A stretch of DNA of 23,643 nt, from the UHGV virus genome UHGV-1377021; one strand, 5' to 3'. The notes under the pieces were generated by a model. That model ran no database searches. It was given only the letters and a program-made list of their open reading frames with translations, and was not told where the DNA came from. The first letter of the stretch is position 1; each line of letters starts with the position of its first letter. This document shows, one piece after another, positions 1 through 23,002 of the stretch. A program made the translations under genes and the position numbers. The stretch is from a virus.

Positions 1-153
1 GCCAGCAGGAAGAATACCGCAAGCATATTTTTGGTGAGAGAAAACAGGATGACTGGAGCCTATATGGCTATGGTACCAGGACAAATAAAAACGGATATAG
101 CCTTTACACATATTGAGGAATTCTATGAAACAGACAATTTTCCTCAGGAGTAA
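1..153 (+). CDS. 3' end of an upstream gene (partial, product unknown)
   Basis: Frame 1 is open from the first base of the window to a TAA at 151-153 and overlaps the ninB start; no recognisable motif in the 50 visible codons. Confidence 0.3.
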   Translation, partial: ASRKNTASIFLVRENRMTGAYMAMVPGQIKTDIAFTHIEEFYETDNFPQE

Positions 154-535
154 GCAACAACAGCAAGCCGCAATCAACGCCATCCTCGCAACACCACTCG
201 ATAAAGACAAGCCAGTTACCATCCGCATTACTGACTACAAGCGCAACCTTGACCAGAACGCAAAATTTCACGCGATGCTGGCGGATATCGCACGTCAGGT
301 TCAATGGTGCGATAAATGGTTAAAACCAGAACAATGGAAGGTTTTGTTGATAAGCGGTCATGCAGTGGCAACAAAACAGGAAGCTGATGTTTTGCCCGGC
401 CTTGAAGGCGAATACGTCAACATTCGCGAAAGCAGCGCACAGATGAGCGTGAAGCGCATGGCAAGTCTGATCGAGTACACAACAGCCTGGGCTATTGGTC
501 AGGGTGTCAGATTTACCGACAGGAGGTACGAATGA
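125..535 (+). CDS. ninB: NinB/Orf-family recombination mediator
   Basis: Translation [21 protein letters not shown]...[22 protein letters not shown] resembles lambda NinB as I remember it (same length class, conserved LDQN...W core). The track ORF begins at a TTG at 113; the ATG at 125 is the more likely start. Confidence 0.85.
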
Positions 536-708
536 GACGACAGCGACGAAGTATCACCGACATCATCTGCGAAAACTGCAAATACCTTCCAACGAAACGC
601 TCCAGAAATAAACGCAAACCAATCCCAAAATAATCTGACGTAAAAACCTTCAATTACACGGCTCACCTGTGGGATATCCGGTGGCTAAGACATCGTGCGA
701 GGAAATGA
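532..708 (+). pseudogene. ninE: NinE-like gene interrupted by an in-frame TAA (codon 34)
   Basis: ATG at 532 overlaps the ninB stop (ATGA). It encodes [33 protein letters not shown], then TAA at 631-633, then the same frame continues SDVKTFNYTAHLWDIRWLRHRARK to a TGA at 706-708 that overlaps the next ATG. The N-terminal segment matches my recollection of lambdoid NinE. Confidence 0.5.
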
Positions 709-1070
709 CAATGGATTATTCACAGTTAAGTGATTTTGAAATTAACGTGGCGGTATTCGAAGCCATTCATAACGGATCACCGGATTACAAAGAAGGTGAG
801 AATGGCGCGATGGTGTTTATCTCATTTGAGGGAGACATTGTAAACGGAGACGCAGTTGAAGTAGAAGTTGAGCGCGGATCCTTTAACCCATGCGCAAACC
901 CAGCAGACGCATGGCCGATTATTGAAAAATACAGGATTAGCATTATCAATCTCGATGAAGACGAGTGGGGTGCACGCGGTGTGGCCTACTGTAAATCTAA
1001 GCGAGCTATACATGAAAATCCCCTCCGCGCCGCCATGATTGTCTTTCTCATGATGCAGAGAATCCAATAA
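705..1070 (+). CDS. NinX-like small nin-region protein (hypothetical)
   Basis: 121-codon ORF from the ATG at 705 (MTMDYSQLSDFEINVAVFEAIHNG...), start overlapping the ninE stop; sits where ninX lies in P22-like nin regions. The track ORF starts upstream at 669 without an ATG. Confidence 0.55.
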   Translation: MTMDYSQLSDFEINVAVFEAIHNGSPDYKEGENGAMVFISFEGDIVNGDAVEVEVERGSFNPCANPADAWPIIEKYRISIINLDEDEWGARGVAYCKSKRAIHENPLRAAMIVFLMMQRIQ

Positions 1071-1246
1071 TGCTTAGCCCCTCCCAATCCCTTCAATACC
1101 AGAAAGAAAGCGTCGAGCGGGCTTTAACGTGCGCTAACTGCGGTCAGAAGCTGCATGTGCTGGAAGTTCACGTGTGTGAGCACTGCTGCGCAGAACTGAT
1201 GAGCGATCCGAATAGCTCAATGTACGAGGAAGAAGACGATGAATGA
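1070..1246 (+). CDS. ninF: NinF-like small Cys-rich protein
   Basis: 58-codon ORF MLSPSQSLQYQKESVERALTCANCGQKLHVLEVHVCEHCCAELMSDPNSS... with a CxxC...CxxCC pattern, resembling lambda NinF as remembered; too short to appear in the ORF track. Confidence 0.7.
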   Translation: MLSPSQSLQYQKESVERALTCANCGQKLHVLEVHVCEHCCAELMSDPNSSMYEEEDDE

Positions 1247-2798: not shown

Positions 2799-3283
2799 GC
2801 ATAAGAGAACTAAACCTCACCAAAGAACAGCACGAGTGGCTGAATGGCTGGCTTGAACTGTGGGGCGCATGGGTTTATTCAGGTCGTCTGGAAAAGCGCA
2901 TGAGCAGCGTAATAGCGAAGTTCATGGAGAGCGTAGAGCCGGGAAGAATTATGACAAGGCCAATGTGTAATGATGATGATGGAATGTTGATTTCTCAGGT
3001 CGTCGATTCCGTCATGTACATTGACAAGAAAGCCTTTGGCATCCTCCTCAGCTACTACGCTCATGGATCTTCCAAGCACGCCATTGCATCTTACTATCAT
3101 CGTGTCGCAAGACCTCGCAAGATGTTATGCCGGGGCGGCGGGCGCATTCAAAAACCATCGCTCGCAACCTGTCGCCGGGAAGTTGACGAAATCCTCAATG
3201 CCTCGTTGTTTATGATTTATCCGGTTCTGGATAGTGCGTTTAAAAACCGGAAACGTGTAGAGAAAATTAAACATGTAGCATAG
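2795..3283 (+). CDS. Q: Late-gene antitermination protein Q (phage 82/21 QuuD type)
   Basis: 162 aa with the WLELWGAWVY...RPMCNDDDGMLISQVV pattern typical of the Q82-type family; last gene before the late promoter and lysis cassette. Confidence 0.75.
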   Translation: MSIRELNLTKEQHEWLNGWLELWGAWVYSGRLEKRMSSVIAKFMESVEPGRIMTRPMCNDDDGMLISQVVDSVMYIDKKAFGILLSYYAHGSSKHAIASYYHRVARPRKMLCRGGGRIQKPSLATCRREVDEILNASLFMIYPVLDSAFKNRKRVEKIKHVA

Positions 3284-3287
3284 AACG

Positions 3288-3325
3288 TGTTGACATCATT
3301 GAGCAAATGAGCAACACTATTCACA
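3288..3325 (+). promoter_or_regulatory. Candidate Q-dependent late promoter (PR'-like) with qut region
   Basis: Exact TTGACA -35 hexamer at 3290-3295 directly after the Q stop; the -10 element is not clean (CACTAT/TATTCA candidates at 19-22 nt spacing). Confidence 0.4.
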
Positions 3326-3331
3326 TAAGCT

Positions 3332-3370
3332 GCCGTTAGTGACTCTTAAGTTGCAACGGTGGCTTTTTTT
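3332..3370 (+). terminator. tR'-like intrinsic terminator just downstream of the late promoter
   Basis: CCGTT(3333-3337)/AACGG(3355-3359) stem with a long loop, followed by GGC and a T7 run (3364-3370). Confidence 0.45.
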
Positions 3371-3448
3371 GTTTGCACAACAGGTAAGAGCATTGAACCC
3401 GCAGACCTCGCGGAATTGGTGAAAGGTGCCGCGCAGTGCTCTTATCGT

Positions 3449-3576
3449 TGTGGTGAAGCTCAATGGCGAGCTAGCAGATAGGCGACAGTGAAAATACTAG
3501 TCATGTAGCTGACCGCCGCGCGTACTGCAATCGGCAGCGCACCGATGGAAGCCGGTTCGATTCCGGCCGCCACAAC
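3449..3576 (+). ncRNA. tRNA-like element (degenerate or interrupted; not a canonical tRNA)
   Basis: Near-consensus T-arm GCCGG-TTCGATT-CCGGC at 3551-3567; 7/7 acceptor pairing between 3449-3455 and 3568-3574; D-arm-like GCTC-AATGGC-GAGC at 3458-3471; anticodon-arm-like stem 3530-3534/3542-3546. But there is about 58 nt extra between D-arm and anticodon arm, no U33, and no CCA. Confidence 0.3.
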
Positions 3577-3585
3577 CCAAACTGA

Positions 3586-3635
3586 GCCGTAGCCACTGGC
3601 TATCCTGAATTCATCAGTGATAGTTACGCTGCGGC
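3586..3635. repeat. 50-nt imperfect palindrome/hairpin centred near a GAATTC site
   Basis: Outer 8-bp stem GCCGTAGC/GCTGCGGC (one G-U), inner 9-bp stem CTATCCTGA/TCAG(T)GATAG with a 1-nt bulge, 5-nt loop ATTCA; no U-tract follows. Confidence 0.5.
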
Positions 3636-3821
3636 CTTCTACACATGACCTTCGTGAAAGCGGTGGCAGGAGGTTGCGCTAACAACCTCATGCCGTTTTG
3701 CCCGTGCATATCGGTCACGAACAAATCTGATTACTAAACACAGTAGCCTGGATTTGTTCTATCAGTAATCGACCTTATTCCTAATTAAATAGAGCAAATC
3801 CCCTCAATGAAGGGGTAGAGC

Positions 3822-4025
3822 ATGTACCGTATGGACAAAATCAGAGAATGGTTCAGTTACAGCTTCGGAGGACTGACTGCGATGGGTGGCATTCTCTCCC
3901 TGAATGACTGGGCTGTCATCATTGGTATTCTTTGTACTGTCGGCACATTTGGCATCAACTGGTACTACAAGCGCAAAGAGCGCGAGGACAGATTGAATGG
4001 CAATGTCACCGGCACTACGAAATAG
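3822..4025 (+). CDS. Holin, small class II/pinholin-like, with a dual-start motif
   Basis: 67 aa beginning M-Y-R-M (two Met separated by a basic residue, as in the lambda S107/S105 dual-start arrangement); two hydrophobic segments, the first Gly-rich ([13 protein letters not shown]), and a charged C-terminus; directly upstream of and overlapping the endolysin. Confidence 0.7.
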
Positions 4026-20107: not shown

Positions 20108-20368
20108 TTAGCTACTGTCTTTTTTATATAGCTTCTTGAGCGTATCAAAGACAATTTTCTTAACCATATCCGATTGTTGTTCTGCCATACGCTCTGCATC
20201 GTCAATGTAAACTGATGCAGAGCTTTGTTTATCCAATGATTCTTCAATCGCTGCAATTATCTCTGAGTTCAGCGACCTGTTATTCATCTTCGCACGCTGC
20301 TTAATTTTCGCGTGGAGTTCATGCGGAAGTCTCAAGTGAAACTGCGCCTCGTCGTATTTGCTGCACAT
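20108..20368 (-). CDS. mnt: Mnt-like ribbon-helix-helix repressor (Arc/MetJ superfamily)
   Basis: 86 aa from the ATG at 20368: QFHLRLPHELHAKIKQRAKMNNRSLNSEIIAAIEESL...NDAERMAEQQSDMVKKIVFDTLKKLYKK closely parallels P22 Mnt as remembered. The track ORF extends to 20560 but the extension has no homology. Confidence 0.75.
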   Translation of the reverse strand: MCSKYDEAQFHLRLPHELHAKIKQRAKMNNRSLNSEIIAAIEESLDKQSSASVYIDDAERMAEQQSDMVKKIVFDTLKKLYKKDSS

Positions 20369-20513
20369 CCTTGATGCCTCACCTAATGGGTGGAATGGCA
20401 TCGTAAAACCTACTGTACAAATCAACAATCGTACCATTTCGGTATATAACAAACGCCAACCGTAGCCATGCTGCGGCGATTCCTTGCATCTGGAGCAAAT
20501 TAAATGACAGACA

Positions 20514-21008
20514 TTATCTAAAACAAGCAAACTCGCCATGATATTTTTCCCTGAATGCAATAGACATTAATTCGGCCAGCTCAATATCATCGGTATACCC
20601 AAGGCAAATAGACTTACCTTTTAGTTTGAACATAACTTTATATGTGTTTTTCCCTTTAAGAAGATGAACTCCTTTTATACCTGTATTGGATGATGAAACG
20701 CTGTTGGTTTTATTCTGACCTCTAGTTACTTCTCTTAGGTTTGAAATTCTATTGTCATTTTTAACCCCGTTAATATGGTCAATTAACCCTTTAGGCCAGC
20801 ATCCTTTCATATAAAACCAAGCAAGTCGGTGGCAAAGATACGATTTTCCATTAATCCGTATTGATAAGTAGTCGGCCTTTGAGTTCGTCTTAAATCCAGC
20901 AACCTTTCCGATACTGGAGCTACCAGAAGCTATCTTCCAAGTGAAGACGCCTGTTTCTGGGTTGTAGTTGAGTGAAGAGGTTAATTCTTTATGAGTAATC
21001 ATATTCAT
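20514..21008 (-). CDS. HNH endonuclease with C-terminal AP2-type DNA-binding domain (homing-endonuclease-like)
   Basis: 164 aa; HNH_3-type motif LIDHINGVKNDNRISNLREVTRGQN followed by an AP2-like segment (GIKGVHLLKGKNTYKVMFKLKGKSICLGYTDDIELAELM); the gene is visibly AT-rich relative to the flanking structural genes. Confidence 0.7.
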   Translation of the reverse strand: MNMITHKELTSSLNYNPETGVFTWKIASGSSSIGKVAGFKTNSKADYLSIRINGKSYLCHRLAWFYMKGCWPKGLIDHINGVKNDNRISNLREVTRGQNKTNSVSSSNTGIKGVHLLKGKNTYKVMFKLKGKSICLGYTDDIELAELMSIAFREKYHGEFACFR

Positions 21009-21028: not shown

Positions 21029-23002
21029 ATGTCAAATATTGTGCCAAATGTTATAATTTCAATGCCAAGTCAACTATTTACGTTAGCCAGAAAATTCCAG
21101 GCCGCAAGCAATGGCAAGATATTCATTGGTAAGATAGATTCCGATCCTACGCTCCCACAGAATCAAGTGCAGGTTTATGTAGAGAATGAAGACGGCTCTC
21201 ACGTTCCTGTTTCGCAACCAATCATCATTAATGCTGCTGGATATCCGGTATATAACGGACAGATTGCCAAGTTCGTAACTGTGCAAGGCCATTCTATGGC
21301 TGTTTATGATGCATACGGTGCTCAGCAGTTTTATTTTCCGAATGTTCTGAAGTACGATCCTGACAGATTGCGACAGGATTTAGCGCTTCCAACAGGCGCT
21401 GAGCTTGTAGGCGTGCAACCACAAGGAAATCTTTCGCAAGTCATTCAGTTTGTATCTCCAGAGCAGTTTGGCGCCATCGGAGATGGTACGGTTCATCCAT
21501 TATCTGAGCGTTATGCGACTCTTGCAGCAGCGCAGGCTGTATACCCATTCGTAACATCTCTGACCCAGACAATTGACTGGGCAGCGTGTCAGGCGGCTGA
21601 GAACTATGCGCGTGGGAAATGTCCGGTTCGCTGTCCTTATTATGCTAAATATCATTTCGGAAACAGTGATTATCTTGAGCTTGGAATAAATAGTAAATGG
21701 TTTGGCGGGGTTAATGTTAATCGTGATTCTGGTGGCACCAGAATGATCAGAACTATACCATTATCGAAGCCACCTTTCGGGCAGGATTGCGTTGTTCGCG
21801 TCATGGATGCCACTAAAGCGGGTAGTTCCGATGAGTTCGTGCGAGGAATAGTCTTTGATGGTTTTGTCTTAGATAGGGGTACAGTTAGAAGGGCCGCCAG
21901 CAAAGGGATGGGGACCATCTGCTTTCATGCAAACTATGGTATGGGGATGACGCTAGGATTAATTGCATTTGGTGCAGAATACGGCGTTTTCGGATATAGT
22001 TTTTGGGCGAGTACGGGGTGGCTTAAAATTGATAGTTGTCATAAGGCATTCTGGGCTGATGCAACATTAATCACCCCTGAAAATCCATCGGTTCCTTCAG
22101 GGGCAGTAAATACAACATTTGACTTTGATATAAGAATTGATGCGTGCGTATTTGGATTGGTTCTGAATCGCGTGAAATATTCAAAATTTACAGGGTATAT
22201 TGAAGGGATTGCAGTCAGTAGTTCGTCAGTACCATTCCCAATATATGATAGCGAAAATGAAACTGCAATTGCTATCACAGCTGTGAGGTGCGATAGCGTA
22301 GACATAACCGAAATGGGCATTGAGTACTGGGAAGGTGTTCATGTTTACTCCAACGAATCAACGCTAAGCGTTAACATGTCATGGACTCAGGATAAAACCT
22401 TAAAAAATACTACTGGTAAACATGGCCCTTATCAGTCTGTATCCCAATTAACTGGTGTTACTGAGTTATTCACGCTACCCTCAACAAATAATAGCTATTA
22501 CTATTCTGTTAATAAATCTCTTTTAACATTAAGAAATATGACAGGAGATATGTCAGGTGCTTCCTTTGCAAATACATTCTTGGTGACAGTTGACGCAAAT
22601 GCAAGATTTCTGATGATGAATACAGGAGTTTATTTTGGGTCCTCACGTTTAATAGCGCCAGCAAACTGGGCCAACATTGAATGCATAAACGATCCGTTTA
22701 TGCCTAATTATTTGGTTCCAGAGGGTTATCGTTATGAAGGTAGGGGCCAGTGCACTGCAAGATCTTGGTCCTTGAAAGCGATCAATGGAGGTGATGGAAA
22801 GGTAAGCCTTAATTATGGCTCTGAGATACCTACTGGTTGGGAGCTTATAGATTGGACAGTGCATGTAATAACTGAAAACAAATCTCAAGCCTCATCCATA
22901 GGCATATCATCAGTAAGCAATAATAGTGTGACCTTCCAAACTAATGTTACGTCTGCTGGTTTTTCAATACAATATAAGCTTCGGTTAAGGGTATCTAAAT
23001 AA
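21029..23002 (+). CDS. Tailspike: conserved P22-type N-terminal head-binding domain fused to a divergent C-terminal receptor-binding domain
   Basis: 657 aa; residues 1-~110 (...[29 protein letters not shown]...[15 protein letters not shown]...NVLKYDPD) parallel the P22/Sf6/HK620 tailspike head-binding domain. The rest has an FGAIGDG motif typical of beta-helix glycanases; its C-terminal third is AT-rich. Confidence 0.85.

Follow-up and report, generated by a model that had tools for sequence, protein, structure and literature searches.

A premature ochre codon in ninE of a P22/Sf6-like phage segment: a probable nonsense mutation in a dispensable nin gene

Background

The ninE frame of UHGV-1377021, a viral DNA stretch of 23,643 nucleotides that was analysed as a whole (the window in the following), is interrupted by an in-frame TAA, and the same frame remains open beyond it. 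The question raised by this locus is whether the gene has acquired a nonsense mutation, whether the stop codon is read through, or whether the TAA is a sequencing error; these three options were offered by a first-pass annotation made from the sequence alone. Lambda can do without its nin region, and ninE is listed there as non-essential (PMC10695390), and nin genes were also described as non-essential in connection with Shigella phage Sf6, of which one nin-region gene carries a premature nonsense codon (PMC5630979). The PHROG families of NinE are labelled 'unknown function', no paper on the function of NinE was found in the literature (searches for 'NinE' were swamped by the word 'nine'), and no relative of NinE was found in the PDB.

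Results and Discussion

Layout of the interrupted frame

The start codon of ninE (ATG, 532-534) shares an ATGA with the stop codon of ninB (TGA, 533-535), as the first-pass annotation had described, and translation gave 33 sense codons followed by TAA at 631-633 (Table 1). Beyond the TAA, the frame continues for 24 sense codons (SDVKTFNYTAHLWDIRWLRHRARK), one fewer than the 25 counted previously, and ends with TGA at 706-708, which sits inside another ATGA (705-708). The peptide SDVKTFNYTAHLWDIR belongs to this part 3' of the TAA. The sum of the codons (33 + 1 + 24) is 58, in agreement with the earlier estimate of about 58 codons for the ancestral gene.

The NinE-like N-terminus noted at first pass was confirmed with the Pfam profile NinE (PF05322; curated cut-off, 25 bits). 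The 33-aa product scored 74.6 bits (profile positions 1-33 of 58), and the sequence in which codon 34 was restored to Glu scored 148 bits (positions 1-58 of 58); with these scores, both above the cut-off, the resemblance to NinE is not due to chance. The position of the gene is also that of ninE in the nin region, namely, after ninB/ninD and before ninX/ninF with overlapping stop and start codons. The gene order of the window is ninB, ninE, ninX, ninF, ant/roi, ybcO, rusA, ninH, and Q, and the nin genes of JEP4, Kapi1, and P22 are arranged in the same order. However, an uninterrupted reading frame of about 55-63 codons over the whole profile is lacking; since the TAA stands at codon 34 and the full-length homologues have 55-63 aa, the window holds a disrupted ninE and no intact member of the family.

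Table 1. Features of the ninE locus in the window (positions are those of the window)
Feature	Position	Strand	Evidence
ninB (recombination mediator)	125..535	+	Pfam NinB positions 1-131 of 131, E 4.5e-54; ORF list
Ribosome-binding site of ninE, AGGAGG	521..526	+	5 nt upstream of ninE ATG; read from sequence
Truncated ninE, 33 codons and TAA	532..633	+	Translation; Pfam NinE
Premature ochre TAA, assigned to G631T; next base T (UAAU)	631..633	+	DNA alignments; comparison with L009-L011
Orphaned 3' part of ninE, 24 codons (SDVKTFNYTAHLWDIRWLRHRARK) and original TGA	634..708	+	Translation; allele comparison; AlphaFold2 helix 34-57
Ribosome-binding site of ninX, GAGGA	699..703	+	7 nt upstream of ATG 711; read from sequence
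ninX	711..1070	+	Pfam Phage_P22_NinX positions 1-114 of 114; alternative start ATG 705
NinF	1070-1246		Pfam profile match

The stop codon stands at a glutamate codon of the relatives

The first-pass annotation had proposed to look for G, as the first letter of a Glu codon, at position 631 in relatives, and codon 34 was GAA or GAG in every intact relative examined. In the DNA alignments, it was GAA in lambda, JEP4, Kapi1, HK630, 720R6, and the closest E. coli prophages, and GAG in P22. A scan of IMG/VR with N at the first base of codon 34 gave at least 120 rows, with G at every new locus among the matches listed. Over all loci collected, 126 matches with G were counted against 4 with T, where the 4 T contigs came from a separate, earlier scan of IMG/VR for the TAA. 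At the protein level, E34 was invariant in the alignment of 35 full-length family members with identity down to 59%.

The closest intact alleles were found in E. coli prophages of 2014C-4587, STEFF_1, and M172-1, which encode a 58-aa protein (WP_000113772.1). From 539 to 807, their DNA equals that of the window except at positions 564 and 631 (prophage alleles L009-L011 in the comparison), and the rare A618 and T654 are common to the window and these prophages. They also carry the same ninX and ninF downstream; in contrast to the window, they have GAA at codon 34 and a full-length protein, and the gene upstream of ninE is ninD (34-nt overlap) instead of ninB. Because relatives have G and no position other than 564 and 631 separates the closest alleles from the window in this range, the lesion was assigned to a single G631T transversion. 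The stop codon thus occupies a sense codon of the relatives, the frame downstream of it is homologous to their C-terminus, and the protein encoded by the orphaned 24 codons is identical to the corresponding part of WP_000113772.1. Of the options named at the outset, it is the nonsense mutation that G at 631 in relatives supports. We consider it probable (roughly 0.8) that G631T turned Glu34 (GAA) of a 58-codon ninE into an ochre codon and that this nonsense mutation, by which the function was likely lost, is tolerated. The mutation appears to be recent, since no additional damage has accumulated in the orphaned 3' segment.

Conservation and predicted structure of the part beyond the stop codon

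The NinE family is narrow (prophages and phages of Enterobacteriaceae), and its members have 55-63 aa. Relatives with a natural stop codon at this position and no conserved downstream segment would have spoken against an ancestral full-length gene; instead, conservation in the family is highest in the downstream, C-terminal segment. In codons 41-52 of 128 ninE sequences, 10 synonymous and 2 non-synonymous variants were counted, and one of these 2 was a stop codon; variation could not be scored in codons 31-40, which the search pattern held constant. These counts point to strong purifying selection on the part of ninE that was lost. The C-terminal motif TFNYTAHLWDIRWLR is retained in Enterobacter homologues of 74% identity, whereas the N-terminal CxxC is not.

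The restored NinE was modelled with AlphaFold2. The model was moderately confident (pLDDT, 69.6; pTM, 0.26) and was used for the secondary structure only. Helices were predicted at residues 8-18, 22-25, and 34-57, of which helix 34-57 was the most confident. Residue E34 is the first residue of this helix, so the stop codon removes the whole of it. With the loss of the best-conserved part, which is predicted to form a single long helix, the function of NinE is likely lost, although the peptide of 33 aa might still have some activity.

The invariant core of NinE consists of a 12-residue stretch and the C-terminal helix. As for the CxxC (568-579, codons 13-16), it lies in ICENCKY in E. coli-type sequences, and the homologues of the Enterobacter/Salmonella type (P0102-P0126) have IAMDNLIF. 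Zinc binding by C13 and C16 was considered and rejected, because the Enterobacter-type homologues carry AMDNL there; with this replacement, the CxxC is not a conserved metal site.

The same allele in other phages and prophages

Annotated public records of the Glu34 stop allele (E34*) already exist. With an identical 30-nt context around it, the TAA was found in Escherichia phage HK542, in E. coli UTME-6, and in three prophage contigs of IMG/VR, two of them from one genome. In HK542 (NC_019769, YP_007151779.1), as in the window, codon 34 was changed from GAA to TAA in the identical 30-nt context, the orphaned 3' segment is intact, and ninE follows ninB with an ATGA overlap; NinE is annotated there as a protein of 33 aa. 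The two phages differ in other respects. HK542 is an HK97/HK022-like siphovirus (Wongtaivirus) and the window is from a P22/Sf6-like podovirus; the ninE haplotype of HK542 is F8, N17, G618, and C654 with a 60-codon 3' end of the lambda type, unlike the window, and the gene after ninE is ninF in HK542 and ninX in the window. Note that HK542 forms plaques in plating assays (bioRxiv 10.64898/2026.07.10.737580). The ninE of UTME-6 (NZ_CP169023, ACET1L_RS03575) likewise has TAA at codon 34 and was annotated by PGAP as a pseudogene ('internal stop'); its 5' end, its neighbouring genes, and its haplotype (G618/C654) are different from those of the window.

These independently sequenced copies bear on the possibility of a sequencing or assembly error at 631, in which case the real phage would have a Glu codon (GAA) at 631-633 and a ninE of 58 uninterrupted codons. 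An error would fit the change of only one base relative to the closest intact allele at the TAA and the location of position 631 after a run of four A, as well as the absence of the exact 62-mer of the window from all 5,426 complete E. coli genomes and that of the 30-mer around the TAA from the scans of genome_contigs (species-representative genomes) and metagenome_contigs. However, the change is a substitution that alters no homopolymer length and lies outside Dam and Dcm motifs; HK542, UTME-6, and the three IMG/VR contigs yielded the identical allele; and it is common for ninE to be disrupted by nonsense mutations or frameshifts. An error, the main rival of the nonsense mutation, is judged unlikely. 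As for such other alleles, Q4* (CAG to TAG), W51* (TGG to TAG), and frameshifted C-termini (L037, L123; P0033, P0144, P0150) were observed; the 50-aa form with W51* was present on 227 contigs, complete chromosomes included, and a search of the complete E. coli genomes with one W51* 63-mer of a rare haplotype gave no exact match.

E34* is rare. On the common haplotype, it gave 1 exact match in about 3,100 ninE copies of the 5,426 complete E. coli genomes, and E34* on the window haplotype or on G618/T654 gave none. The haplotype of HK542, UTME-6, and the IMG/VR contigs L005 and L008 is G618/C654, against A618/T654 in the window, so that an independent mutation in the window is the simplest account; judging from these linked variants, the lesions of HK542 and of the window probably arose independently. 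Otherwise, a conversion tract of less than 36 bp or an error would have to be assumed. Single base changes can create a nonsense codon in ninE in 26 ways, and the E34 codon was affected in two or more haplotype backgrounds, slightly above the naive expectation of 1 in 26; the coincidence of two hits is unremarkable. L005 and L008 come from the same genome (IMG genome 2558860444), and both have E34* and the same linked variants with different upstream genes, which suggests gene conversion between these co-resident prophages.

A further possibility is that the truncation was selected, that is, that loss of the C-terminal helix is advantageous (e.g., by escape from a NinE-sensing host system, or by avoidance of a cost to the lysogen) or that the 33-aa basic peptide is functional. 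The presence of E34* on at least two haplotype backgrounds, with different flanking genes as well, its persistence in the viable phage HK542, and its presence in both L005 and L008 would be in line with this. Against it, the allele is very rare overall, and strong purifying selection maintains full-length NinE throughout the family. The gene also suffers other, random lesions; with 26 one-step nonsense changes available, two hits on one of them are weak statistics, and gene conversion accounts for the allele being shared by prophages of a single genome. Selection for the truncation is thus very unlikely, and slightly less credence still was given to its more specific form, in which E34* is recurrent on at least two haplotypes and is kept in HK542 for an advantage of helix loss in some hosts or for a functional 33-residue peptide.

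The search for further carriers gave some look-alikes. An exact-protein look-up with the 33-aa product gave dozens of apparent carriers, which were rejected because they were 'partial' genes cut by contig ends and not TAA alleles; the genuine carriers in this look-up were only HK542 and possibly some Salmonella entries. Many draft assemblies of E. coli and Salmonella break inside ninE (L133-L142, with ends at about 3099-3101), giving partial entries of 28-45 aa. Up to 6 copies of ninE were found per E. coli genome, which makes the gene an assembly-breaking repeat.

Termination at codon 34 and expression of ninX

Since AGGAGG lies 5 nt before the ATG of ninE, the 33-aa peptide should still be translated: this strong start site would still be used, ribosomes would release a basic peptide of 33 residues, and the C-terminal 24 residues would no longer be made, by which NinE would most likely be inactivated. 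This would be different if the TAA were decoded by readthrough or ochre suppression, in which case some full-length NinE would be made and the gene would be functional. The 24 codons past the TAA are still open, with no difference from the closest intact alleles apart from those at 631 and 564, and the downstream frame is likewise open in HK542 and the other carriers of the TAA; an open downstream frame is, however, equally expected for a recent mutation. The stop codon stands in the context AAA-TAA-T, and UAAU is among the most efficient stop signals of E. coli. No tRNA or tmRNA gene was found in the window, and the -1 slip that can be read from the sequence, on CCCAAAA, meets TGA two codons later, so the context offers neither a suppressor tRNA nor a productive frameshift path. 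The stop codon is also not conserved in relatives, as the counts for complete E. coli genomes given above and those for IMG/VR (4 contigs with TAA against more than 120 with G) indicate. From the stop context and the rarity of the TAA allele, the readthrough option of the first-pass annotation is disfavoured, and we regard it as extremely improbable. As for a split gene with a restart, the frame from 634 to 705 contains no ATG, GTG, or TTG codon.

The first-pass annotation had also stated that the TGA of ninE overlaps the ATG of the next gene. The ATGA at 705-708 is present as described, and some depositors use ATG 705 as the start codon of ninX; the RefSeq start of ninX, however, is the equivalent of ATG 711 in the near-identical prophages L009-L011. 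There are three candidate start codons in one frame, namely, GTG 669, ATG 705 (with the ATGA overlap), and ATG 711 (with its own GAGGA), and public annotations are split between 705 and 711. The stretch left untranslated after the TAA of ninE is about 77 nt long and not C-rich, and no promoter-like or terminator-like site was found from 630 to 710. Because ninX keeps a GAGGA of its own, the gap is short and not C-rich, and no terminator-like site is nearby, the nonsense mutation would be expected to exert little polarity on ninX.

The phage that carries the lesion

The window is a P22/Sf6-like (Lederbergvirus-type) segment with a nin region, Q, and genes for lysis, terminase, portal, scaffold, coat, head completion, ejection, and tailspike. 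The best matches of the whole window had 68-76% coverage and about 97% identity, and the genes tested match Pfam profiles essentially from end to end; the phage looks like an otherwise intact one and not a decaying remnant. The nonsense mutation in ninE would be tolerated in such a phage, as the nin region can be lost by lambdoid phages without loss of plaque formation. The lesion is ordinary gene decay of a dispensable accessory gene, and the window provides one more case of an otherwise intact lambdoid phage losing ninE, as with the rest of the nin region. For annotation, ninE should be marked as interrupted by an internal stop codon or called as a 33-aa fragment, and neither be skipped nor be extended silently. 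The E34* finding itself raises no new question; natural truncations such as those of HK542 and of the window phage could serve as ready-made mutants.

A parallel is found in Sf6, which is, like the phage of the window, a viable P22-like phage (97% identity in the structural genes) with a nonsense codon in a dispensable nin gene. The lesion of Sf6 is, however, in gene 51 (dam-like). That the premature nonsense codon of Sf6 was located in ninE was considered and rejected, because gene 52 of Sf6 (annotated as 'HKbB homolog') is an intact NinE of 60 aa. In the gap between Sf6 genes 50 and 52 (L143 353-940; Sf6 31852-32439), a dam-like methylase is split into two ORFs and is unannotated, and this split gene is evidently the Sf6 nin gene with the premature nonsense codon.

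Two further regions of the window were noted. Between Q and the holin gene (3283-3822), where Sf6 has tRNA-Asn and tRNA-Thr in the corresponding interval, there is no tRNA gene, and the only terminator-like hairpin found lies on the minus strand (3815-3800). An ORF for an HNH_3 endonuclease of 164 aa (20514-21008, minus strand) is located between the ORF for an Arc/Mnt-like repressor (20108-20560, minus strand) and the tailspike gene (21029-23002, plus strand), and may be an insertion of the homing-endonuclease type in the immI/tailspike junction.
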